In this document: piece by piece, positions 8,853-43,987 of the stretch
Layout: each line of letters begins with the position of its first letter
Position numbering within the stretch: position 1 is the stretch's first letter
DNA from: Methanobacteriota archaeon
Lineage (GTDB): Archaea > Thermoplasmatota > Poseidoniia > Poseidoniales > Poseidoniaceae
DNA: 44,904 nt
Assembly: GCA_011522915.1 (NCBI GenBank)
Contig: WTIA01000044.1
Coordinates: 1 to 44,904, forward strand
Direction of reading: 5' to 3'
Translations under genes and position numbers: made by a program
Notes under the pieces: generated by a model
Databases searched by the model: none
What the model was told of the DNA's origin: nothing
What the model saw: only the letters and a program-made list of their open reading frames with translations

Positions 8853-8911
8853 TTCTTTACCCCCGTATCTTTCCCGAATTAACTACCCTTCTTGAGTGTG
8901 ATGCCTCTAGA

Positions 8912-11900
8912 TTACTCCTTGGACAAATCGATTATTGCTCTAGATTGCGGGGCTGACCATCCAGTAGTTTGTAATTGCATCAAAATTGAACGCTCATTAA
9001 TTCCGCCCTTTAGTGCGGTCTTTGTCCAATCAACAGCCGCTGCCCTGTCTGCTAATTCCTCAGTATCGAACAGATCTGGGTCGATTACAACTTTCGCTTT
9101 GCGAACCTTGCCATCCCCACTTACTGGCTTGCGTTTTGCCACTTTTTTGCCCGCAGTAGCCGCGCCAGAAGCCGGGCCACCGCGCTGTGGGCCTCTTGGG
9201 TCTGGACCACGAGAAGGTCCTGCGCTGGATGGACCTCTACTCGGGCCACCTGGAGGACCCCTGCTAGGTCCTGCAGATGGGCCTCTACTTGCACCGCCTG
9301 GCGGCCCTCTACTTGGTCCTGAGGTTGGTCCTCTTTGTGGTGAAGCGCCTGGAGGTCCTCTGCTTGGACCTCGTCCTTGTGGACCTGATGGTGGTCCACG
9401 CTGTGGACCTCTTTGTGGGCCAGATGATGGACCTCTTGAATTTCCTCTGCCGCCGAGTATTCCTGCCATGAAATCATCTTCATCATCGTCGTCATCATCG
9501 TCGAACCAGTCATCGTCGTCATCATCGTCATCGAAATCGAAGTCTCCACCTCTCATTCTAGAAATTATGATGGATACAAGTCCCAAGAACAGTAATCCCC
9601 CACCACCTGCTGCTGCATAGAATATCATTGGGTCCATTCCGAATATAGTCTCGTCTTCTTCAGTTGGTTCTGCTTCCACCTCGATTTTACATCCACTCGG
9701 ATATACATCGGCACCGGCGGGAGTGTTAGGACAAGCGTCTTCATCATCCATAATTCCGTCATTGTCGGTATCTGATTGGTATAGAGCGCATCCAAAGTTC
9801 AGTCTCGCTTCTTCTAGATACAATTCATTGATTTCCGTTCCTGGACACAAATCAGCATCGTCTCCATCTTGGTTATCTCCCCAGCCGTCTAAATCAAGAT
9901 CATCCCATTGTGTTGGATTGTCTGGGAATTTATCATCTCCCAACAAATCGCTATATCCGTCGCCATCTCTATCTAAGCAACCGTATCTTAACTTCTCTGT
10001 AGAATTACCCCACACATCAGGGCAGGCATCAGAAAAGTTTGCTCCAGGTAACTGAGAGTCTCCGTACCCATCTCCATCTCTATCTTGCCACTGGGTTACA
10101 TCGAATGGGAACGCATCACCTGTGTGAGTATCATTTAGAGCATCATAGGAATAGTTTCCTTTGAATCCGTCGCCATCTACATCTTCATCCAACGATGATT
10201 CATCGATACAACCATTTGCTAATACCTTGATTGGAGGCGGAGTTCCTGGGCATTCGTCTAGCAAATCATTGACCCCGTCAGTATCGGTGTCTTTTTGTGA
10301 GAGGTTGCATCCATTGTCATCGATTGTCAATTCTGGGTCAGAATCTGGACAATCATCATCTGGATCATTGACTCCATCTCCGTCCGAATCCACCTCTTTC
10401 TGCGCTGCTGAACAGCCATCATTGTCAACTGCGGTATCGATTGGAGTATCATCGCACTTGTCATCTCCATTAGAGACGCCATCTAAGTCATCATCAATTT
10501 GGAAATCTGAGCACCCAGCTTCGTTTACAGACTGGCCTTGCTGTGTGTTAGGACAATCATCCTCGCCGTCAGGTATGCCGTCTTGGTCTTGGTCCTCTTC
10601 CTGAGATTCAATAGGACATCCAATTCCAGGTTCTCCGTTGGGTTTAGTACCGTTTACCACGCCAAAGTCGTATGGGCAAGCGTCAGGGTTGTTTCCTTGC
10701 TGATTGTCACCCCATCCATCACCGTCGCTATCTGCTACTTGGGTTGAATCTGCAGGGAAGGCATCTGTTGAGTCCTCTCGACCGTCTCCATCAGTATCCT
10801 GACAGCCGTAATACGGAACGATAGTTTCACCTACTGAAGAGGTTGTTGAATTACCCCAAACATCAGGACAATTATCGAGATTTAATCCGCCCCTATTGGA
10901 ACCGTTATCCAATTCTGTCCAATTATTGGGATATCCGTCGCTATCGGTGTCATACGCCGCTGCAGGTATGGTTGGGAATTTATCTGGAGTTGTAGCTCCT
11001 TCAGACGAGTTATCCCCAAATCCGTCCCCGTCTGAGTCCGCCCATTGTGTTGGGTCTTGAGGCCACCAATCCGCACCGTCTTCCTCTGTCCAAGTGTACT
11101 GAGTTCCCCATTCATTATCTTCATACCAAGGGTCGGATGAACCGTCTGAGTCTGCATCTGGGCAGCCTTGCCGGTCTCTCCAGGAATATCCTTCAACGAA
11201 CCAACACCAGTCTCCATCTATAGGGTCATCTGGGTTGTCTCCATATCCGTCACCGTCGGAATCTGCATGTTGAACAGCATTGTATGGGAAGTAGTCTCCT
11301 GCTCTCTGAATAGATTCTAGTTCAACATTACAACAATCTGGTCCATGGTTATCGCCGAAAGTATCGAGGTCGGAATCCAAAGCCTGTTTCCAGTTTTCTG
11401 GGAATCTATCTCCTTTAATCGGGTCATCAGTCCAGCCGTCTTGGTCATCATCAGAACAACCTAATTCTCCCCACCAAGAGGTCCCATCGTCGTCATTACA
11501 GTCATCGTTGGCATCAGACCAGCCGTCCTCATCATAATCATCGCAGCCAAATCTGTCCAAGTTTGATTCACCATAATCAGATGGGCATGCATCTGCATGT
11601 GGCCCTGATGGATTGTCTCCAAATCCATCAGAGTCTGTGTCTTCCCATTGATTTCCAATGCTGGGCAGTGCATCGTGCGAATCTGGAATTAAATCCCTAT
11701 CCTCATCGCTTACGATTCTCATGGCGCTAAAATCGTTGGTAGATGATTGTGAATAAGCAATAACCAAATCGCCATCAACCAATTCCATACCAGCCATGTG
11801 TTCGGTGATTATTGACACGAATTTTGTTGAGGTTGTGATTCCTGAACCAGTAAAGGAACCCGTAGTCCAAACCAAATTATTGGAACCCAAATCAGAATTT

Positions 11901-14900
11901 GTAGATGTGATGTGCCACCTATCGCTATCGACTATGAAGTCGTGCTGTGTTTGGGAATCTGGGACATCCATTGAATGAACCGACCATGACCCATCAGAGG
12001 CACGATGAAGAATACCTTGGTCTGAATTATTGAAGTCATAGAGTGCATAACCACCTTTCATCACTAGAGTGTTGTTTAGATTTTGATTGCTCTGCAACAT
12101 CCACCTTTGATGGGCTGTAGACCAATTCCCACCAGTCAAGTTTCTTTCATACACCGTGAGGTATTCGCCATCGAGGATAGATATTGCTAGTTTGCCGGAA
12201 ACAAGTTCCAATTCAAATGATGAAGTTGTACTTGCGGGTGCAATATTTTCAACTGTATGGTTGGTACCGTTGAACTCAACCAATTGAAGGTATGTAGTAC
12301 CGTTTACTGATGCTATTTGAGCAATGATTAGATCGTTACCATAAGTCCAAATGGAATCAAAGTCATCACCAATTGTTGTATTGAGAATTGATACCTCGCT
12401 CCATGACCCATTTAATGTGTTAAGATATACCATCTTATCATCATCATCAACATAGACCATCCTTGTTTTGTCAGCAGAATCAACGTGAACTTTAATTGGG
12501 TACAATACGTCTATTGAAGAGCGAACTAATGAGGTAGAATAACCGTATTCGCCTTCAACCGTGTAAAATATTGATGAGAAACCTGGAGAAATGTGACCTA
12601 TTCTTTGCATACCGCTCAGGTCCAATGATGAACCCATTTCCTTTCCTACACCAGTACCGGTGTCCAGGCTGTAGTCTAGGCCTGTGTTTCCATCAACATT
12701 CATCGTGACCAGTGTTGGAGCACCAGAAATAGATTGCACGGCCAAAATTGTTGGCTTCCCTGCATTGGTTATACCCATTACCGCATCTTCTACGTCGCCT
12801 AGATATCGGAAATCCCATCGACCTGCAGAAGTCAATCCGTCAGGAGTGTTTTCTAGTATCATCAAACTTGAATCCGATAATTCAACCATCAACGAAGGAC
12901 TGCCACGCAGAGGGGTAAGCAAATCGATTCCATTCACCGATTCTGGGAATTCAAAGTTGACATTCTCCCAGTCTCTTTCCGACATTATTGTAAGCACAGG
13001 AGCGAAATTATCTCCTTGTGTTAGGTCTCTAGACGAGTATAACAACTCGCCCATCCCATCCCCGTCTAGGTCCATTCCTGTGAGCAAATTGAGACCAACA
13101 TACTGTCCTGATGATCCCTGTGCAAATAATTGAACATCGCTACGTGGGCCGTTTTCTGAACCCAGATACAAATTAACAGTTCCAGATTTTGATGCGGATG
13201 GCATCATTAACAAGAAGTCGTCATAGCCATCTTCATTGATGTCGCCTGCTGGTGAAATAGTATATCCCAATCTTGCGTTAGCGAATGGACCTTTCAATGT
13301 CCAATTCTTCACAGCTATTGTTTCATTACCGGACCACATGTGGACCTTACCGGTTTGATAAGGTGTTGTACTTGCAAATAATTCGCTGATAATTAGGTCG
13401 TCATACCCGTCGCCGTGTACGTCTCCAACAATCGACATCTCAAAGCCATACAATTTCCCTTGGTCCAGAGAAGAATGGGTATAATTGGGGTTAGAATTGA
13501 TTCCTTGTTCACTTCCCATGAAGAATTCTACTGAAGAATAACCCGTTGGGCTATCAATCGTTCCAGTGTTTGATACCACCATGTCAAGGTATCCGTCTCC
13601 GTTTAGGTCTCCTCTGGATGCAATTTGCCTTCCAAACATCGGCCCATATTCTGATTGGGTAATATTGGATTGATGAATCATTGCGGTTCTATTTCCTTTG
13701 AGGACCATTACCAAACCATTCTTTGTCAGAGTTGGCTGATTTTCGTTTTCTTCTATTAGTTTGTCAGCTACAATCGCTAAGTCATCACAACCATCTGATT
13801 CAACATCGCCTAGAGAAGTCATGGAAAAGCCGAGATTATCATCATCGGTACCATTCATCTCCCACCATGTCTCGGTCGAGATTCCTTGTGAGTTACCTAA
13901 CCTAATCGATACGTGTCCAGAGTTATTGACTGCCATGCCTGGTTCGCTTGAAGCGATATCATCAAACCCATCGCAATTAAAGTCGCCAATGGCAATTCCT
14001 TGACCTAGATTTGATTCGCTGAATGAGCCAACCAGAATTCTGTCTGCAGAAGCACTAGGTCCACTTGGAGAACCATAGTGAATCGAAATTGTGCCGTTTC
14101 CTTCAGGGTCAGTGTAAACCAAATCATCCATACCGTCCGCATTTAGGTCACCACTCAGAACCTCGCCTTCAGATGAATCATCATCGTATGTAATGACGCT
14201 TGTTGGTGTAGGATTTATTCTACCTGTGTCTTTTCCTGCAAGACTACGTAATAGGGAGATTTCATTGGAAGTGTTATCTGACTTAGAATAGGATATTTGT
14301 TCGATATTGTTTGAATCAAGATCCATCCCAATCGCATCTGTAATCGACATTCCTCTAGCTAGAACCTGACGCATTTCTGTAGTTTGATTGAACCTGAGAA
14401 GCCTTACTTCATTCTCGGATAAGTTGCTATGAGGATGGTAGGTGTAGACCACGTGAACCATGTCATGTGAATCGATTTTCACCTCAATATCTGAACCTAT
14501 TGGGCCTGCATCCAATAATGTTTGATTCCAAAATGCCTTGTTGAACCAAAGTTGGCGCAGGCCTTGGGTCTTACTATCCTTGAAGAAAATGTGAGTCCGA
14601 GATTCTGAATCAAATTCTAAGGTGAGACTGTCGGAATCGCTTTCATAAATCTCTTCTGCGATAGTTCTGATGTGCCAAGTTCTTTGGAGATAGACAGCAT
14701 TTGGTTCAGCTAACCGTGCTAGTCTAATGTGGCCTCCTGTCTCTTCGTTTGAACCATCCCAAATATCGTATGCGATTTGGATTCGATTTTCTTTTGTAAC
14801 ACCGATGGCGCAAGTGTCGGTTGAGTTTGCTCCAAGGTTTTGAACTACCAACGTGTCAAAACTGCCATTTTGGTGTAATGTGTGAAAGTAGACTTCTGTA

Positions 14901-15217
14901 TCATTGGTAGAACAAGCATATCCAAGGCCGGTTTCAGTGAGTACTAGGTCAATAGAAGAGACATCAGATTTGTTTTGAACTTCTTGAGTCCAATAGTCCA
15001 ATATAGATTCTCCACGAACAGTCCAATTTTTCCCATCGACGTTTATGACGTCTCCTTCTAAGTCATGTCCTGAGCCGGTAGAGAAGTCTACAGACAATGC
15101 CGCAGTATCATCTTTTTCCTCCAAGATGGGGATTGGAAATTGGAAAACTGGTGCTGAAATTTGTATCAAAAATATGGCGAGAATTGCAAGAGGCAGACCT
15201 TTGCTACGCCATGACAT
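8912..15217 (-). CDS. Giant type-I surface protein: signal peptide, beta-rich region, 7 FG-GAP (integrin-alpha-like) repeats, second beta-rich region, ~20 thrombospondin type-3 Ca-binding repeats, TM helix and a 215-aa cytoplasmic tail
   Basis: Single 2108-codon frame (track start 15238 is GTG, another GTG at 15229, first ATG at 15217 gives MSWRSKGLPLAILAIFLIQISAPV). FG-GAP motifs include GDLNADGMDDLV, GDFNCDGFDDIA, GDVESDGCDDLA, GDLNGDGYLDMV, GDVHGDGYDDLI, GDINEDGYDDFL and MDLDGDGMGELL. TSP3 motifs include DQDQDGIPDGEDDCPNT, DSDGDGVNDPDDDCPDS, DTDTDGVNDLLDECPGT and DTDNDGIMDDEDACPNT. TM helix is IFYAAAGGGGLLFLGLVSIIIS. Confidence 0.9.
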   Translation of the reverse strand: MSWRSKGLPLAILAIFLIQISAPVFQFPIPILEEKDDTAALSVDFSTGSGHDLEGDVINVDGKNWTVRGESILDYWTQEVQNKSDVSSIDLVLTETGLGYACSTNDTEVYFHTLHQNGSFDTLVVQNLGANSTDTCAIGVTKENRIQIAYDIWDGSNEETGGHIRLARLAEPNAVYLQRTWHIRTIAEEIYESDSDSLTLEFDSESRTHIFFKDSKTQGLRQLWFNKAFWNQTLLDAGPIGSDIEVKIDSHDMVHVVYTYHPHSNLSENEVRLLRFNQTTEMRQVLARGMSITDAIGMDLDSNNIEQISYSKSDNTSNEISLLRSLAGKDTGRINPTPTSVITYDDDSSEGEVLSGDLNADGMDDLVYTDPEGNGTISIHYGSPSGPSASADRILVGSFSESNLGQGIAIGDFNCDGFDDIASSEPGMAVNNSGHVSIRLGNSQGISTETWWEMNGTDDDNLGFSMTSLGDVESDGCDDLAIVADKLIEENENQPTLTKNGLVMVLKGNRTAMIHQSNITQSEYGPMFGRQIASRGDLNGDGYLDMVVSNTGTIDSPTGYSSVEFFMGSEQGINSNPNYTHSSLDQGKLYGFEMSIVGDVHGDGYDDLIISELFASTTPYQTGKVHMWSGNETIAVKNWTLKGPFANARLGYTISPAGDINEDGYDDFLLMMPSASKSGTVNLYLGSENGPRSDVQLFAQGSSGQYVGLNLLTGMDLDGDGMGELLYSSRDLTQGDNFAPVLTIMSERDWENVNFEFPESVNGIDLLTPLRGSPSLMVELSDSSLMILENTPDGLTSAGRWDFRYLGDVEDAVMGITNAGKPTILAVQSISGAPTLVTMNVDGNTGLDYSLDTGTGVGKEMGSSLDLSGMQRIGHISPGFSSIFYTVEGEYGYSTSLVRSSIDVLYPIKVHVDSADKTRMVYVDDDDKMVYLNTLNGSWSEVSILNTTIGDDFDSIWTYGNDLIIAQIASVNGTTYLQLVEFNGTNHTVENIAPASTTSSFELELVSGKLAISILDGEYLTVYERNLTGGNWSTAHQRWMLQSNQNLNNTLVMKGGYALYDFNNSDQGILHRASDGSWSVHSMDVPDSQTQHDFIVDSDRWHITSTNSDLGSNNLVWTTGSFTGSGITTSTKFVSIITEHMAGMELVDGDLVIAYSQSSTNDFSAMRIVSDEDRDLIPDSHDALPSIGNQWEDTDSDGFGDNPSGPHADACPSDYGESNLDRFGCDDYDEDGWSDANDDCNDDDGTSWWGELGCSDDDQDGWTDDPIKGDRFPENWKQALDSDLDTFGDNHGPDCCNVELESIQRAGDYFPYNAVQHADSDGDGYGDNPDDPIDGDWCWFVEGYSWRDRQGCPDADSDGSSDPWYEDNEWGTQYTWTEEDGADWWPQDPTQWADSDGDGFGDNSSEGATTPDKFPTIPAAAYDTDSDGYPNNWTELDNGSNRGGLNLDNCPDVWGNSTTSSVGETIVPYYGCQDTDGDGREDSTDAFPADSTQVADSDGDGWGDNQQGNNPDACPYDFGVVNGTKPNGEPGIGCPIESQEEDQDQDGIPDGEDDCPNTQQGQSVNEAGCSDFQIDDDLDGVSNGDDKCDDTPIDTAVDNDGCSAAQKEVDSDGDGVNDPDDDCPDSDPELTIDDNGCNLSQKDTDTDGVNDLLDECPGTPPPIKVLANGCIDESSLDEDVDGDGFKGNYSYDALNDTHTGDAFPFDVTQWQDRDGDGYGDSQLPGANFSDACPDVWGNSTEKLRYGCLDRDGDGYSDLLGDDKFPDNPTQWDDLDLDGWGDNQDGDDADLCPGTEINELYLEEARLNFGCALYQSDTDNDGIMDDEDACPNTPAGADVYPSGCKIEVEAEPTEEDETIFGMDPMIFYAAAGGGGLLFLGLVSIIISRMRGGDFDFDDDDDDDDWFDDDDDDDEDDFMAGILGGRGNSRGPSSGPQRGPQRGPPSGPQGRGPSRGPPGASPQRGPTSGPSRGPPGGASRGPSAGPSRGPPGGPSRGPSSAGPSRGPDPRGPQRGGPASGAATAGKKVAKRKPVSGDGKVRKAKVVIDPDLFDTEELADRAAAVDWTKTALKGGINERSILMQLQTTGWSAPQSRAIIDLSKE
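9173..9451 (-). repeat. Coding repeat: 13 RGP units with GPxx period-4 spacing (Arg/Gly/Pro/Ser-rich) in the cytoplasmic tail
   Basis: Translation RGPSSGPQRGPQRGPPSGPQGRGPSRGPPGASPQRGPTSGPSRGPPGGASRGPSAGPSRGPPGGPSRGPSSAGPSRGPDPRGPQRGG. Codons are heterogeneous, so the repeat is kept at protein level. Confidence 0.85.
9474..9547 (-). repeat. GAT/GAC run encoding DFDFDDDDDDDDWFDDDDDDDEDD, directly after the TM helix
   Basis: Direct reading of catcatcgtcgtcatcatcgtcgaaccagtcatcgtcgtcatcatcgtcatcgaaatcgaagtc. Confidence 0.9.
9689..11707 (-). repeat. Array of thrombospondin type-3-like DxDxDGxxDxxD calcium-binding repeats (coding)
   Basis: About 20 D-x-D-x-D-G motifs between residues ~1178 and 1850, many followed by C-P as in the TSP/COMP type-3 consensus. 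Confidence 0.8.
13004..14176 (-). repeat. Seven FG-GAP / integrin-alpha-like beta-propeller blades (coding)
   Basis: Seven copies of hydrophobic-G-D-x-[ND]-x-D-G-x-x-D-hydrophobic spaced ~55-65 aa apart, each followed by a G-x-V-x-hydrophobic-x-x-G strand (residues ~355-745). Confidence 0.75.
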
Positions 15218-15270
15218 ATCTCGACTCACAATCTTCACCCTACATTACTATTCCCAAAGTTTGCACATAC

Positions 15271-16755: not shown

Positions 16756-18012
16756 TCACCACCTCTTCCACATCATAGAGGAACGGTCCCACCAATCTAA
16801 TTCACCGTTTTCATGCTTTCTCCAAAGCATTCCATTTTCATCTATATGAGTAGGTAGTCCTTCAGAATCCGGCTCGCCCATTTCATTTAGCAACCCACCA
16901 AACAATTCATCATCCTCGGGACTTTTTATCATCAGGACAAATACTGCAATACCCAAGACCAATGAAAGTAGACCAATACCCCATATTCCTACACTGGAGG
17001 TCTCTGTATCCATTCCCTTGGATTGAGCAGGTGCGTTTTCGTCTTCAGATGTGGAATCGGGGGCAGGCATTCTGATTAGCATGGCACCATTTGTGGTGCT
17101 TATCTCCTCATCATTGGTTACAGTTAGCAATATCTTGTAAACGCCAGATTCCCATTGCGAACAATCGAGATTGCTTGTGTTGGCAACCATTCCAATCGAA
17201 GGTGTGATTTTCCAGTCCTTAGAGAAATCAGAATGGTCTTCGCTGCTGGATGGAGTATGAGTGATGCTGCAGGGTGTTCCAATTTTTGCATCGTTTCCAT
17301 TGACATCAATGGAGAAAAGAGGAGGAGGTTTGTTTACGATAACGAGTTCGAGAGTGTCGGTTGTTGTTTGCCCTAGGCCGTTTTGATAACTTTCTGTTAC
17401 AATGTAATTACCCGCAGGCCAGTTACTGCAATCAAGAACCTGTTCGGTTTCCAAAACGGTGAACGGGGTTCCGATTATTGACCGCGTACCTGGGAAATTC
17501 CACCTTGGCCCTGTCTCATCCACGAAGTCTCGAGTGATTTCACAATCATCACCCGTTTGCATAATTTCCGAACCAGATAGTACTAGGTCTATTTCGGGAG
17601 TTGCTAAGGCAGGGCTTAAATCAAAAATTCCAAGATTGATTGATTTCAATAAAATCCCATCAGCGTCGCTTATTTCCAACTGTAACTGGTGTTCTCCTGC
17701 CGCCCATGAATCATAGGTCAATGAAGCGTTTTCTTGATCTTCAAACGCCATGTAAATTTCCTCGTATACTGTGAAACCAGAGTGCTCTCCGATCAAAGTT
17801 AGAGTCAAGTCAACCCATTGGTTTGTTGAATTGATTACTACAACTACACGAATAGCATCCATCATTCCGTCTTGATTCATATCTAGACTATCATTTCTCA
17901 ATGCGACCAAATTCAATCCCGCCTCTTCGAAGGGGTCAATCTCTTCCTGCGCAGAAACTTGACCTGCAAAAGATAGTGAAACCATCAGTGCGATAAGTAA
18001 CCACTCACGCAT
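16756..18012 (-). CDS. Type-I surface protein (signal peptide, Ig/PKD-like beta ectodomain, TM helix, 56-aa cytoplasmic tail ending in a WW-like Trp motif)
   Basis: MREWLLIALMVSLSFAGQVSA signal. TM helix VGIWGIGLLSLVLGIAVFVLMI. Tail is ...HIDENGMLWRKHENGELDWWDRSSMMWKRW. The ATG at 18012 overlaps the upstream stop by 8 nt (ATGCGTGA), with GGAGGTGA 7 nt upstream. Confidence 0.75.
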   Translation of the reverse strand: MREWLLIALMVSLSFAGQVSAQEEIDPFEEAGLNLVALRNDSLDMNQDGMMDAIRVVVVINSTNQWVDLTLTLIGEHSGFTVYEEIYMAFEDQENASLTYDSWAAGEHQLQLEISDADGILLKSINLGIFDLSPALATPEIDLVLSGSEIMQTGDDCEITRDFVDETGPRWNFPGTRSIIGTPFTVLETEQVLDCSNWPAGNYIVTESYQNGLGQTTTDTLELVIVNKPPPLFSIDVNGNDAKIGTPCSITHTPSSSEDHSDFSKDWKITPSIGMVANTSNLDCSQWESGVYKILLTVTNDEEISTTNGAMLIRMPAPDSTSEDENAPAQSKGMDTETSSVGIWGIGLLSLVLGIAVFVLMIKSPEDDELFGGLLNEMGEPDSEGLPTHIDENGMLWRKHENGELDWWDRSSMMWKRW

Positions 18013-20455
18013 TTGATTCACCTCCCTTGTCCTCTTCGATTACTGCTTTTTCAAGCGAAGACGCCGAACGAGAATAACGGACAATCATCGCAAGTGCTGA
18101 TGAAATCAGCATAACAGTACCCAGAATCATGTAAGTCAACCAACTAGATGCCGGTTCTTCACCCATTACCGAGAAAGCTGCATTCCAACTTCCATACTCA
18201 TCTGACCAACCGTCACCATCTGAATCAATACAACCTTGCAAATCTTTTGTTGAAGTCCCTGCCACATCCGGACAGTCATCTCGCTTGGCACCCATAGGCA
18301 CATCACCAAAGCCGTCTTCGTCAGTATCTTGCCACTGTAGTCTATCGGTTGGAAAGGCATCTGCTTGACCCCATGGTGATGCTAGCCAATTTTGAGAGGG
18401 GTCTGACCAGCCATCGCCGTCTGAATCTCTACATCCAAGACGATCAAAGAAAGACTGGCCTCTCTCATTGGGGCAAGCGTCGCCTTCGTGTCCATCGGAG
18501 TTATCTCCGAATCCATCGCCATCCAAATCCCTCCATTGGGTTGGTTCGTGTGGGAACCTATCCCCTTGATCTGACCAGCCATCACCATCTGTATCATGGC
18601 AACCCCATCTATCCCCGCCAGCGGTTGGACCTTGAGATGTTCCTGGGACGTCTGGACAGACATCAGCAGTAATTCCCTTCGGATTATCGCCTCTTCCATC
18701 GCCGTCTCTATCGTGCCATTGCGTTTCATCAGCAGGCCAAGCATCTGCAATTCCACCAGGACTTGCTAACCAATGGGTTGTAGGGTCAGACCATCCATCA
18801 CCGTCTGAATCTGGGCAACCCCATCTATCCATGGCAGAATTACCTTCAGTAGCGACACAACCGTCTCCTCTCCAAGCAGGCCTCCAGGTTTCACCATCGA
18901 AATATTCTAGATTATCTCCATAACCATCATCATCGGTATCGTACCATTGACTTTCATCATCAGGAAATGCATCTGCGAACCCATCAGGGTGAGAAATCCA
19001 CCAGTCATCAGGATTGGAGAAGCCGTCCATGTCGGAGTCTAAACATCCAAATCTGTCCTGCCAACTTATCCAACCGCTCTCTACTTCTTCAACCGTACTT
19101 TGAGGGCAAACATCGCCTTCAAAGCCATTGAGATTGTCGCCATAGCCATCACCATCCGTATCCCTGTACTGGCTTGGAACTAGCGGGAAATCATCGACTT
19201 GTGTTGCGCCGTATGAATTGTTATCGCCCCATCCATCTCCGTCAGTATCTAACCATTGAGTTGGATTGTCAGGGAAATCATCGACTTGTAATGCTCCTTC
19301 GCTTTGATTATCTCCCCAACCATCACCATCTCTGTCGTGCCACTGTGTAGGGTTTTCAGGGAATGCGTCTGCCCCGTCACCAGCTGACCAATTTAGGTCT
19401 GGGTCAGACCAACCATCACTATCTGAGTCGGGACAGCCAAATCTGTCTTCCAATGAATAACCAGTAACGAATGGGCAAGCATCTGGTTGAGTCGCATTGG
19501 CATACCAAACCCCAATCGACCAATTAATTCGAGTGTCATTCCATGAACCATCAGCCCAATTATCTCCAAATCCGTCTTCATCTGTGTCGTTCCATTGGCT
19601 TGGAGTAAATGGGAATGCGTCAGCAGAACCGTTTGGATGGGCAAACCATGGCTCTACTCCATCAAGTCCACCTGGGTCAGCATCTGACCAACCATCTCCA
19701 TCCGAGTCGAGACATCCAAATCTATCCAGTTCTGAGTATCCTCTCCGATACGGACAATGGTCCGGTTCAAATCCATCTAGATTGTTTCCAAAGCCATCAT
19801 TGTCTGAATCCACCCACTGAGATGGTTGGGTTGGGAATGCATCTGCTCCATTGTTGGTAGTCCAACCACTGTCCGGGTCTGACCAACCATCGGAATCTGT
19901 GTCTATGCATCCCAGTCTATCGTTTGTAGAGGTTCCAGGAATGAGATCACAATCATCCTCATTGTCGATAAATCCGTCCTCGTCCCTGTCACGATTATCT
20001 TGATTTATGGATGGGGTTAGGGTATAGTCTACTCCGTCATTACACCAACTGTTTTTTCCTTGTATCTTTAGATAGACATAATCTGCAGTTGACATTGTAG
20101 TCGACAATACTGTTGAAGAACTGCCGTCATCCATTGCTTGGCTAGCAAGTTGAGAACCTGCAGAATTATGAATAGAAAAATCTGCTTCCCAACCATCTCC
20201 TGGACACCACCAAGCAGGGTTAGACATCGAACCTGAGAAGCTTACCTGAACGATATCACCCTTGTAGGCATATATCTTCCACCAGTCCGTCTTGTCAGTG
20301 GGCGTACATCCATCTGGGTCACAGACATATCCGCTTACAGTCACGCCATTGGTTAGTCCATTAGCTGATGCTAGGTCATTATCTGCTTCAACGGTTGGAA
20401 GGAACGTTAGCAGGGATATCGCGAGGAAACACACCACCCACCGCTCTGCGCGCAT
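18005..20455 (-). CDS. Type-I surface protein: signal peptide, PPC (pre-peptidase C-terminal)-like domain, long TSP3-type Ca-binding super-repeat array and a C-terminal TM anchor
   Basis: MRAERWVVCFLAISLLTFLPTVEA signal. The PPC-like pattern is DKTDWWKIYAYKGDIVQVSF...DYVYLKIQG...VDYTLTPS. Motifs DRFGC.DSDGDGWSDP and P.QW.D.DGDG[FWY]GDN alternate. TM helix is WLTYMILGTVMLISSALAMIV. Confidence 0.85.
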   Translation of the reverse strand: MRAERWVVCFLAISLLTFLPTVEADNDLASANGLTNGVTVSGYVCDPDGCTPTDKTDWWKIYAYKGDIVQVSFSGSMSNPAWWCPGDGWEADFSIHNSAGSQLASQAMDDGSSSTVLSTTMSTADYVYLKIQGKNSWCNDGVDYTLTPSINQDNRDRDEDGFIDNEDDCDLIPGTSTNDRLGCIDTDSDGWSDPDSGWTTNNGADAFPTQPSQWVDSDNDGFGNNLDGFEPDHCPYRRGYSELDRFGCLDSDGDGWSDADPGGLDGVEPWFAHPNGSADAFPFTPSQWNDTDEDGFGDNWADGSWNDTRINWSIGVWYANATQPDACPFVTGYSLEDRFGCPDSDSDGWSDPDLNWSAGDGADAFPENPTQWHDRDGDGWGDNQSEGALQVDDFPDNPTQWLDTDGDGWGDNNSYGATQVDDFPLVPSQYRDTDGDGYGDNLNGFEGDVCPQSTVEEVESGWISWQDRFGCLDSDMDGFSNPDDWWISHPDGFADAFPDDESQWYDTDDDGYGDNLEYFDGETWRPAWRGDGCVATEGNSAMDRWGCPDSDGDGWSDPTTHWLASPGGIADAWPADETQWHDRDGDGRGDNPKGITADVCPDVPGTSQGPTAGGDRWGCHDTDGDGWSDQGDRFPHEPTQWRDLDGDGFGDNSDGHEGDACPNERGQSFFDRLGCRDSDGDGWSDPSQNWLASPWGQADAFPTDRLQWQDTDEDGFGDVPMGAKRDDCPDVAGTSTKDLQGCIDSDGDGWSDEYGSWNAAFSVMGEEPASSWLTYMILGTVMLISSALAMIVRYSRSASSLEKAVIEEDKGGESNA
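18221..19993 (-). repeat. About 8-9 coding super-repeats (~55-75 aa), each pairing a Cys-anchored DSDGDGWSD motif with a DxDGDGFGDN motif
   Basis: At DNA level the imperfect unit GACCA[AGT]CCATC[NNN][NN]TC[TC]G[AT][AG]TC recurs near 18405, 18570, 18788, 19405, 19685 and 19880. Confidence 0.8.
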
Positions 20456-42172: not shown

Positions 42173-42513
42173 AGGTCTTAGCCTTCGAAGATTCTGTTGA
42201 CATTGAAGCACTGCTGATTAGTGGTGGAATCGAGTTATCAAACTTTGAATTCAAGCAATACTGGGATTCGCAAAATTACCTTGAGAGAATTTCTGAATTT
42301 TGCCCAGACATCCTGATGTTGGACCATTACATGCCGCCTACTCGCGGTTTAGACGTGCTAAAGGGATTACTTGCATCCGATGTCAAAAGACCGGAAACTA
42401 TCGTAGCGATGAGTTCAGCAAGCATGGCTAACAATGCTATGCTCAATGCTGGCGCTGATTATGGAATCGTAAAATTCGAAATCTCAAAACTCGAAATTTG
42501 GACTCATTCGTGA
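42169..42513 (+). CDS. Orphan single-domain response-regulator receiver (CheY-like)
   Basis: MKVLAFEDS (acidic pair), DILMLDHYMP (phospho-acceptor Asp), IVAMSSAS (Thr/Ser position) and GIVKF (Lys position). The ATG overlaps the peptidase stop in ATGA. Confidence 0.65.
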   Translation: MKVLAFEDSVDIEALLISGGIELSNFEFKQYWDSQNYLERISEFCPDILMLDHYMPPTRGLDVLKGLLASDVKRPETIVAMSSASMANNAMLNAGADYGIVKFEISKLEIWTHS

Positions 42514-43202
42514 GGTTGCCAATCGGCTTGTCCTGGCTCCCTGTACCACCAGTAACCGTCGTCGTCTTTCCACCACTCAACTCCGTCATCGTCAGTGTAG
42601 TAGTTTTCATCCTCTTCTTCATCCTCGGCAGTAGGGTCGTCAAACCCACCATCTTGAGCCATCTGTTTCTTCAGTTGATTGATACCTTCATCAACATCTG
42701 CGAAAACTCTGTTTTGAGTTCTGATTTCTGCTTGATGGTCGCCTGCTGCAATCGCATCATCTGAATCAGCGTAGAAATCTGCAGCCATGCTTTTTCTGAA
42801 TTCTTCGAACTCATCACGACCGAAAGACCCTGTGAATTCATCTCCCTGGGACTTCATTAAATCATCCAGATTTTTGCGTTTACCTAGTTTCAATTCTGGA
42901 GAATCAGGCATATCTCCATCATCGTAAAACGCATCGCTGTCATCCGTTAGTTTTGGGAATGAGCGACCTTCAGGATCTGCTTCTTCAATTGCTTCGATTA
43001 CCAAATCGTGCTCTTCCTCGTCGATGTTACCTTCTTCATATTGTTCAGTAACTGTCTTGACTAACTTCCTCAAAGTCTTAGCAAGAGCACGGTCACTACC
43101 CGCTTCGCTAACGACTTTGTCAACTTGCTTTAGCAAGCGTTCGTATGGACTTCCTGTAATGGCACCGAAGATTCTTCCGAATCCGCCCTTCTTCTTCGCC
43201 AT
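42504..43202 (-). CDS. Acidic cytosolic protein with a C-terminal WW-like Trp motif, unknown function
   Basis: 232 codons with an ATG start. Basic N-terminus MAKKKGGFGRIFG and a helical acidic body. C-terminus is YTDDDGVEWWKDDDGYWWYREPGQADWQPHE. Confidence 0.65.
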   Translation of the reverse strand: MAKKKGGFGRIFGAITGSPYERLLKQVDKVVSEAGSDRALAKTLRKLVKTVTEQYEEGNIDEEEHDLVIEAIEEADPEGRSFPKLTDDSDAFYDDGDMPDSPELKLGKRKNLDDLMKSQGDEFTGSFGRDEFEEFRKSMAADFYADSDDAIAAGDHQAEIRTQNRVFADVDEGINQLKKQMAQDGGFDDPTAEDEEEDENYYTDDDGVEWWKDDDGYWWYREPGQADWQPHE

Positions 43203-43294: not shown

Positions 43295-43987
43295 ATGGTG
43301 AGCGACTGGTTGGCGGATGCAGTCGCGATTTACAACGACGAATCCCACAATCGACGCGATGAATATGTCGCTCAGGTACATTTTCCAGCTAGGATTTTAG
43401 AAGATATTCTCGGTTGGGCTTTGAAAGCATTACCAGATGAAATTCTAGTTGGTCTTGACGTATCTATGGATAGAAATCTGCCTGAAGTTGAAGTTGAATT
43501 TGAAGGAACTAACCAGAAAAAAAATCTGTTTGCAGGACAAGGTTATAGAATTCATGAAGCGAAGATGGTAAATCGCGGAGATTCGTTTTCAGTACACCAT
43601 TTGCCAGAAGAATGGACCGACGAAGTTTTTGGTAGCGATAGAGGTCCTAGAGCCGGGCGATTTACCCACTGGTTGCACACTCACCCAAACTGCCCAGCAA
43701 TACCATCTCATGCCGATGCTGACGCCGCACAATCAACCGATGGAGTAGACCTAATCCTGGGGATTGAATTCTCTCCAGAAGGACCTCTGCCATGGTTTGA
43801 CGATATCGAAGGTGAGAGGCGTGTAATTGGTGAAAAGAAATCATGGTTCTCGAGAAAAGACAAGCGTCAAGTCCTAGGTGTTGCGCCAACAGGACACAGA
43901 ATTCATTCCCTCGAATTAATCGCATTCCATAAAGCAGGACTTGGAGTAAACGTTGTATTCGTCAATGATGACGGTATTGCTTACTGA
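43295..43987 (+). CDS. JAMM/MPN+ family metalloprotease (long form)
   Basis: Complete JAMM motif: candidate Glu in LPDEILVGLDV, then HTH-PNCPAIP-S-HA-D (HxH-x7-S-x2-D). Confidence 0.7.
   Translation: MVSDWLADAVAIYNDESHNRRDEYVAQVHFPARILEDILGWALKALPDEILVGLDVSMDRNLPEVEVEFEGTNQKKNLFAGQGYRIHEAKMVNRGDSFSVHHLPEEWTDEVFGSDRGPRAGRFTHWLHTHPNCPAIPSHADADAAQSTDGVDLILGIEFSPEGPLPWFDDIEGERRVIGEKKSWFSRKDKRQVLGVAPTGHRIHSLELIAFHKAGLGVNVVFVNDDGIAY

Follow-up and report, generated by a model that had tools for sequence, protein, structure and literature searches.

A long, modular and conserved predicted cytoplasmic tail with an orphan three-helix domain on a giant surface protein of Poseidoniales

Results

Anatomy of the tail

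The window analyzed here, that is, the whole stretch of 44,904 nucleotides (nt) of contig WTIA01000044.1 (assembly GCA_011522915.1, from an archaeon of the Poseidoniaceae), carries on its minus strand a gene for a giant surface protein of 2108 amino acids (aa), and the C-terminal tail of this protein is the subject of the present study (Table 1). From the N-terminus, the protein consists of a signal-like segment, FG-GAP repeats, thrombospondin-type-3-like Ca-binding repeats, one C-terminal membrane helix and a tail of 215 residues. Pfam recognizes the FG-GAP repeats as FG-GAP_3 (E = 2e-9, 38.2 bits; cut-off 26.9) and FG-GAP (E = 3e-6, 27.3 bits; cut-off 22.1), and the thrombospondin type-3 repeats as TSP_3 with E = 4e-4, just below the cut-off of that family. 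The ectodomain holds 36 N-x-S/T sequons and 30 Cys. A hydrophobicity scan yields only two hydrophobic segments, at aa 14-32 and aa 1875-1893, the first of which is preceded by basic residues (MSWRSKG...). The 215 residues directly after the second segment (aa 1894-2108) correspond exactly to nt 8915-9559 of the minus strand and lie in a single open frame with the ectodomain, which bears out a preliminary description, made from the letters alone, of a long tail after a single membrane helix.

The sequence right after the helix is RMRGGDFDFDDDD... The first block of the tail reads RMRGG, DFDF-D8-WF-D7-EDD and FMAGILG. With 19 Asp and 1 Glu it has the 20 or so acidic residues, the GDFDF and the two Asp runs split by WF that had been described, and it holds 4 Phe and 1 Trp. 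The second block, of 100 aa, is of low complexity (28 Gly, 25 Pro, 16 Ser and 14 Arg). RGP occurs in it 12 times, not 13 as first counted, against 1.0 expected, and none of 5000 composition-preserving shuffles of the same 100 residues came up to 12; the strong enrichment of the unit therefore stands with a corrected count. GP was observed 19 times (7.0 expected from shuffles), and the period-four spacing of GPxx is real, with lag-4 autocorrelation of z = 4.4 for Pro and z = 4.8 for Gly. The DNA of this region is a degenerate tandem repeat of 12/24/36/48 nt. The several RxxPxxP matches that had been reported did not hold up. The tail contains 2 matches to this SH3-type motif where shuffles give a mean of 0.8 (P = 0.18), which is the chance level, and the motif is not conserved, being present in only 18 of 77 orthologous tails. 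The Lys-rich patch is present, and KKVAKRKPVSGDGKVRKAK is confirmed between the G/P/S/R region and the terminal helical module. In length the tail is an outlier among the surface proteins of the window. Four others combine a hydrophobic segment at the N-terminus with a membrane helix near the C-terminus, and their tails measure 8, 24, 36 and 57 aa.

Conservation and selection

A profile of the end domain was used to scan one genome per GTDB species, and 80 loci were kept. The domain is encoded in 175 species-level genomes. Among the 80 loci all informative taxon labels are Poseidoniales, Poseidoniaceae or Poseidonia, including the original Marine Group II (MG-II) assembly CM001443.1, and the remaining loci are labelled as unclassified archaeal metagenome-assembled genomes (MAGs). 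One match in a database of 5.8 billion proteins is labelled Thalassarchaeaceae. The nearest relatives of the end domain of the window are found in Poseidoniaceae MAGs, with 97% identity over the domain.

In 52 complete, gap-free orthologs the protein does not stop right after the membrane helix but continues for 165-235 aa with the same order of blocks: the helix, 1-3 Lys/Arg, an acidic/aromatic block, a Pro/Gly/Ser-rich basic stretch, KVRKAK and the end domain. The acidic block of these orthologs is about 31 aa long, with a net charge of -14.6 ± 2.1 and 2-6 aromatic residues. The middle region, comprising the low-complexity stretch and the basic patch, has a mean length of 104 aa and a net charge of +13.6 ± 3.6, and 87% of its residues are P/G/S/T/A/Q/R/K/N. 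The end domain has a mean net charge of -4.7 (range -9 to 0). Across the order there is no conservation of the RGP unit as such, with 0-12 [RK]GP per tail; what is kept in the middle region is its composition and its net positive charge. In KVRKAK, the Arg and Lys residues are at least 90% conserved in the family alignment. In the end domain the invariant residues are A and W in helix 1, L and Q in helix 2, G and W in the turn, and Q, S and A at the start of helix 3, and at least 90% conservation is found for F, D-R, G, E-R, M-Q, T, A, R and I. The pattern G-W-S-x3-S-R-A-I-I, which the preliminary description had singled out, is thus strongly conserved.

The acidic run is always broken up by aromatic residues and is followed by a short hydrophobic motif, which is DDFM-x-x-[IL]-L-G in close relatives and SFLDKLD or PLPF in distant ones. 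Run and motif together look like a short linear motif of their own, and we take them to recall acidic tails that end in a hydrophobic patch.

The ratio of nonsynonymous to synonymous substitution rates (dN/dS) was computed against four close relatives; synonymous sites have reached saturation in these comparisons, with dS of about 1 or higher, and dN is low. The ratio is smallest in the end domain (0.01-0.03) and the acidic block (about 0.02) and rises to 0.11-0.15 in the repeat region. By this estimate the tail is under strong purifying selection. The pattern fixes the minus-strand frame as the one that is read, and every block is constrained in it. It also disposes of an antisense open reading frame (ORF) of 242 aa at 8892-9620 (+), which spans the whole tail and is a by-product of the stop-poor, GC-rich repeat.

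The end domain is present once per locus, and once in the window. Second matches within loci L032 and L063 are partial and spurious and lie in the ectodomain. Two proteins were considered as versions with a repeated domain, P0057 (1019 aa) and P0058 (443 aa), in each of which 3-4 stretches match. Both consist of Ala/Gly/Ser/Thr-rich repeats with only 'GGINNGS...PAGWSAPST' in common, and they were therefore rejected as chance matches.

Broken gene calls in public assemblies

An annotation artefact is one way to account for the tail: it could be a separate small gene, or a fusion by read-through or frameshift that only this assembly has. A first search with the last 79 residues seemed to agree with a separate gene, as all 26 homologs are short stand-alone proteins of 57-121 aa, and the giant and a small ORF are called apart in three syntenic loci. 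However, the contigs of the short homologs are in perfect synteny with the window, and the place where the giant gene is broken in them is precisely the RGP repeat, with stretches of N in L002 (about 9900-10231) and L003 (about 9750-10249) and frame changes in L001 (about 9700-10321), a contig labelled 'pilon'. The same type of break, a gap or a single in-frame stop, occurs in a divergent group (P0021-P0024). In L003 the giant gene is without any listed gene call. The short calls start inside the repeat or the basic patch, at arbitrary start codons. In gap-free assemblies of about 60 other species, uninterrupted frames of 2022-2237 aa end in the same tail, and an exhaustive HMMER search of 1.84 billion representative proteins returned ten at full length (2006-2134 aa) with the domain at their C-terminus. 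A word-indexed search of the 5.8 billion proteins gave only matches of 128 aa or fewer and is uninformative on domain architectures, full-length giants being present in the representative library.

Since N gaps and frame breaks lie within the repeat and the gap-free frames are continuous, the short 'proteins' are the severed ends of the giant gene. The purifying selection on the repeat region in the frame of the giant speaks against a separate gene as well, and an artefact of annotation is extremely improbable. The consequence reaches beyond this locus. By breaking many MAG assemblies, the RGP repeat has left severed tail ends in the databases, which a profile search finds as 'hypothetical proteins' of 46-128 aa in more than 100 clusters.

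Predicted fold of the end domain

AlphaFold2 was run on the last 67 residues with an alignment of 41 sequences. Three helices are predicted, at aa 2059-2077, 2082-2092 and 2096-2107, with a mean predicted local distance difference test (pLDDT) score of 84.5 and values above 90 across the bundle. A second run, on the helix and the whole tail with 15 database sequences, gave the membrane helix, about 150 residues with pLDDT below 50, and then the same three-helix bundle at 94-97. The bundle thus reaches pLDDT 92-97 in two independent runs, and the models support the terminal helical module of about 55 aa expected from the preliminary description. Within the disordered residues, the sole structure of the second run is a three-residue helical turn at FMA of FMAGIL. 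The helix-plus-tail model shows no confident docking of the acidic block or of FMAGIL onto the bundle.

Pfam gives no family for the 215-aa tail or its 72-aa end at E <= 1, and none, including UBA, TS-N, CUE, HTH and Sel1, for 41 members of the end-domain family even at E <= 10. NCBIfam gives no family for the tail, its only CTERM match being GG_III-CTERM with E = 0.77 and 9.7 bits against a cut-off of 22. The best Foldseek match in PDB is the HN domain of COMMD10 (E = 1.3), none being below E = 1. A profile search of all PDB sequences found no UBA domain; its one match, 4bwr (a Sel1-like repeat, SLR, protein), is sub-threshold, and the whole-sequence E = 0.013 sums eight weak repeats, the best single stretch having E = 24. 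Neither the tail nor the end domain was found described in the literature searched. The three-helix end domain is previously undescribed and without a match to a known family.

The G-W-S-x3-S-R-A-I-I pattern had also been likened to UBA and TS-N domains. The domain could be a divergent UBA fold that binds a ubiquitin-like protein of the archaeal SAMP/Urm1 type or an elongation-factor-like partner. It resembles UBA and TS-N domains in size, in being an all-alpha three-helix bundle (about 40-50 residues) and in a conserved Gly-aromatic loop between two helices, although a small three-helix bundle is generic rather than diagnostic. The motif L-x-x-L-Q-x-T-G-W-S-x-x-Q-S-R-A-I loosely recalls what we take to be the helix/'MGF' loop/helix signature of UBA and archaeal NAC UBA domains, and a weak Pfam match in the window (43295-43987, +; E = 0.002, below the cut-off) to the deubiquitinase-like Prok-JAB family would suit a ubiquitin-like partner. 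Nevertheless, none of the family, profile or structure searches above yields a UBA, TS-N or CUE model, and no such structure is among the 43 Foldseek matches listed. The order of the helices differs too, since the conserved T-G-W loop connects helices 2 and 3 rather than 1 and 2. Nothing follows helix 3, so that the one which would complete a UBA fold is absent, and the long N-terminal helix packs in its place. A fold of the UBA type is therefore very unlikely.

Alternatively, the domain could be releasable. Upon ligand binding or shear the tail would be cut in or near the membrane, and the freed basic arm and tri-helical domain would act in the cytoplasm, for instance as a helix-turn-helix (HTH)-like nucleic-acid binder in the manner of membrane-tethered regulators. 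A Lys/Arg-rich arm does precede the bundle, a three-residue G-W-S turn links its second and third helices, and the third opens with a polar Q-S-R. HTH regulators (3wg9, 4zmr, 2a6c and 3kor, E = 6-10) are among the very weak Foldseek neighbours. However, all Foldseek matches are non-significant, those to HTH proteins having TM-scores of 0.34-0.42, and no HTH family of Pfam is found in any of the 41 members. The net acidic charge of the end domain across the 52 orthologs is unfavourable for binding DNA or RNA. No intramembrane protease is found among the Pfam-scanned genes of the window, several of its ORFs lying outside the scan. Release of such a regulator is hard to credit on these grounds.

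Topology

The tail is probably cytoplasmic and the ectodomain outside, and four independent lines agree on this placement, which is the reverse of what would have spoken against a cytoplasmic tail. Hydrophobicity allows for a signal-like N-terminus and only one further segment. The charges flanking the helix in orthologs are 0.6 Lys/Arg and 4.5 Asp/Glu in the 15 aa before it, and 2.3 Lys/Arg in the 8 aa after it. Sequons fall from 1.77 per 100 aa in the ectodomain to 0.26 in the tail, and Cys from 1.59 to 0.05 (52 orthologs). Lastly, a variant (P0028/P0029; L090 82-1389) in the same gene neighbourhood as the usual giant carries an additional pair of membrane helices, joined by a loop that holds two Cys, after the usual helix and ahead of the acidic block. 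The insertion is even-numbered, so the tail would stay on its original side.

Reuse of the end domain and the neighbouring genes

The end domain is not confined to the giant. MAG SAT1510 (L087 2795-7165, +) encodes an S8 subtilase of 1456 aa that has a signal peptide, CARDB and NEW3 domains and, near its C-terminus, a membrane helix. A linker of 16 residues joins this helix to the end domain, the acidic and repeat regions being absent. The same NEW3-helix-domain end occurs on two further independent metagenome contigs (L088 and L089). The domain is portable, being common to at least two kinds of membrane-anchored surface protein.

Immediately downstream of the giant, 59 nt away in the window, starts a gene for a 485-aa EF-hand/zinc-ribbon protein. 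It is composed of a conserved N-terminal helical region, (PE)n repeats, a calmodulin-like EF-hand pair, a polyglutamine part with three 'QQQQQAWLAQQQQ' units, and a C-terminal zinc ribbon. The EF-hand pair (aa 303-360) matches EF-hand in Pfam, and calmodulin and centrin in PDB. In 84 of 86 related loci an ortholog is found 60-120 nt downstream of the stop codon of the giant; of the two loci without it, one is at a contig end and the other is the S8-protease locus.

The preliminary description had proposed two WW-like modules of the window (16759-16848 and 42507-42599) as candidate partners of the RGP repeats. These Trp-rich C-termini give no WW or SH3 match in Pfam at E <= 1, a divergent fold being possible, and the proposal finds no support. 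The Prok-JAB match mentioned above adjoins a Trp-rich protein of 232 aa.

The other neighbours in the window are housekeeping and surface-protein genes, namely M32 and M29 peptidases, a MoCF domain, an amidohydrolase, TPK, Lnb_N, glycosyltransferases and UvrC. A second surface protein, of 816 aa (18005-20455, -), consists nearly entirely of thrombospondin-type-3-like DxDxDGxxD repeats and has a signal peptide, a C-terminal helix and a tail of only 24 aa. In tblastn it matches 81 related loci, which the similar repeats of the giant itself could explain, and in L002 and L003 a gene of 815-816 aa is called at the matching place upstream, a match by length only. This gene and the glycosyltransferase genes nearby suggest a cluster of surface-protein genes.

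Table 1. Coordinates of the giant gene, the blocks of its tail and other features of the window.
Feature	Position (nt)	Strand	Remark
Giant surface protein gene	8912..15238	-	One 2108-codon ORF, 2108 aa; stop codon 8912-8914
N-terminal hydrophobic segment, aa 14-32	15143..15199	-	Signal peptide or signal anchor; Kyte-Doolittle mean 2.13 over 19 aa
Single membrane helix, aa 1875-1893, AAAGGGGLLFLGLVSIIIS	9560..9616	-	Hydrophobicity scan; also a helix in the AlphaFold2 model
Juxtamembrane RMR, acidic/aromatic block and FMAGIL, aa 1894-1929	9452..9559	-	Net -18; sequence; modelled as disordered
Low-complexity G/P/S/R region, aa 1930-2029	9152..9451	-	12 RGP units; net +13; sequence; predicted disordered
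Polybasic (Lys-rich) patch GKKVAKRKPVSGDGKVRKAKVVI, aa 2030-2052	9083..9151	-	Net +8; holds the KVRKAK motif; sequence and conservation
C-terminal three-helix domain, aa 2053-2108	8915..9082	-	Net -4; AlphaFold2 and conservation; family without annotation
EF-hand/zinc-ribbon gene, 485 aa	7395..8852	-	No hydrophobic segment; candidate cytoplasmic partner
Trp-rich C-terminus ...DENGMLWRKHENGELDWWDRSSMMWKRW	Protein 16756-18021, WW-like part 16759-16848	-	57-aa predicted cytoplasmic tail of a single-pass protein
Trp-rich C-terminus ...DDDGVEWWKDDDGYWWYREPGQADWQPHE	Protein 42504-43202, WW-like part 42507-42599	-	

Discussion

We favour, with modest confidence, the view that the segment is the cytoplasmic tail of a giant FG-GAP/thrombospondin-repeat surface glycoprotein of Poseidoniales (Marine Group II) that acts as a tethered docking device. 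Strong purifying selection, a confidently folded end domain and the reuse of this domain on an unrelated S8 protease point to more than a passive anchor, and to this extent the preliminary description of the tail as an interaction platform is partly upheld, the platform itself remaining an inference. About 150 residues predicted to be disordered would begin at the membrane with the acidic/aromatic block (about -15) and continue with the Pro/Gly/Ser-rich basic stretch (about +14). This disordered polyampholyte would hold the three-helix domain, with KVRKAK as its basic arm, some way below the membrane, and the blocks of opposite charge may pair up within one tail, by folding back, or zip it to its neighbours. 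The three-helix domain would most likely bind a cytoplasmic or membrane-proximal partner, for which the EF-hand/zinc-ribbon protein encoded immediately downstream is the first candidate. Through such binding the huge ectodomain with its Ca-binding repeats could be linked to the inside of the cell, whether for positioning, for clustering or for outside-in signalling, as in an adhesion receptor.

A purely structural tail is the main rival to a docking function. It would serve the biogenesis, retention and lateral packing of the giant, with neither a separate cytoplasmic partner nor signalling. The helix and the charged blocks would fix the topology, the basic stretches would lie on the anionic membrane surface, and the three-helix domain and the blocks of opposite charge would stick neighbouring tails together and so stabilize the surface coat. 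In the window the charges of the blocks nearly cancel (-18, +13, +8 and -4), and the blocks are conserved as charge rather than as sequence, which fits electrostatic self-association or membrane binding. The domain also sits on a second, unrelated membrane-anchored surface protein that has no EF-hand neighbour, and a single copy was found per locus, as counted within loci and not in whole genomes. Moreover, a conserved giant heavy in sequons beside glycosyltransferases is what is expected of a major envelope glycoprotein. Nevertheless, the very low dN/dS of the end domain together with invariant polar residues (D-R, E-R, Q, T and Q-S-R) on a bundle of 56 aa exceeds the usual demands of packing. 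The other C-terminally anchored surface proteins of the window do with tails of 8-57 aa, and the strictly conserved adjacent gene for a cytoplasmic protein would be left unexplained. A role in structure only is thus possible, though we hold it to be rather unlikely.

Several points weigh against the docking function as well. Its partner, its binding and any signalling are what we infer from the gene and its surroundings, and the word docking rests on the pattern of conservation and on context, the end domain having no homolog of known function. The locus of the S8 protease carries the domain without an EF-hand neighbour, so the EF-hand protein is not an obligatory partner of the domain. As to topology, which is predicted, an acidic run of such length (about 20 residues) is uncommon on the cytoplasmic side when it directly follows a membrane helix, and the biased composition of the tail accounts in part for its low counts of sequons and Cys. 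Finally, Poseidoniales are uncultured, and the full-length product is known here from the gene alone.

The docking function can be taken one step further. An outside-in pathway like that of integrin and CIB, independently arisen, may be operating, in which the ectodomain would sense attachment or external Ca2+ on particles or phytoplankton, the signal would pass through the membrane, and the EF-hand/zinc-ribbon protein would read the charge-block tail and the three-helix domain. CIB1, an animal EF-hand protein, binds the tail of integrin alphaIIb, and this serves as an analogy only. Such a pathway is a speculative and decidedly unlikely version. If true, it would be a genuine archaeal analogue of an adhesion receptor in one of the most abundant archaea of the ocean. 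Marine Group II are among the most abundant archaea of the surface ocean and have never been cultured.

It is unusual for a giant surface protein of a prokaryote to carry a long, modular tail of predicted cytoplasmic location that has an orphan folded domain and is conserved throughout an order. Rinke et al. (PMC6461757) describe thrombospondin genes as widespread in Poseidoniales, with a possible part in adhesion, and attachment of Marine Group II to particles or algae has so far been discussed only in terms of these genes (PMC6461757). The present study adds a conserved giant that appears to be built like a transmembrane receptor and not like a secreted adhesin. It also defines a new, very conserved small domain that is suited to expression and screening, and indicates one specific candidate gene for its partner.

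Among known systems, integrin alpha comes to mind first. The giant shares with it FG-GAP repeats, which are of the type that forms the beta-propeller of integrin alpha, a large Ca-binding ectodomain and a predicted type I single-pass topology with one membrane helix and a cytoplasmic tail, and an EF-hand protein is genetically linked to it. The tails differ, that of integrin being about 20-50 aa long and starting with GFFKR, whereas that of the giant has 215 aa and starts with RMRGGDFDF. No thigh or calf domains were identified in the giant, and its end domain is unrelated to the integrin adhesome. The homology to integrin alpha that is seen is that of the FG-GAP repeats. A VWA or beta-integrin family, as expected of an integrin beta partner, was not found among the Pfam-scanned genes of the window, the rest of the genome lying outside the search.

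Archaeal glycoproteins of the PGF-CTERM/archaeosortase type or anchored C-terminally have, like the giant, a signal peptide, an N-glycosylated ectodomain and a hydrophobic helix with a Gly-rich start, yet PGF-CTERM sorting signals end a few basic residues past the helix, where the giant keeps 215 conserved residues. LapA, SiiE and the RTX adhesins of MpIBP type are bacterial surface proteins of several thousand residues that bind Ca, are rich in repeats and serve attachment. The giant is likewise a large, repeat-rich, Ca-binding surface protein. Unlike it, these adhesins use type I secretion and an N-terminal plug in the outer membrane, and have neither a C-terminal helix nor a cytoplasmic tail.

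The yeast cell-wall mechanosensors Wsc1 and Mid2 have been called 'integrins in disguise' (PMC6685044). They are eukaryotic, have far smaller ectodomains and bear no sequence or domain relationship to the giant. Nevertheless, as single-pass, heavily glycosylated proteins whose tail recruits an intracellular partner, they may be its closest functional model in a wall-less or coat-bearing microbe. More broadly, the tail of the giant would by analogy work most like those of eukaryotic single-pass adhesion receptors, although it belongs to none of the families of such receptors.

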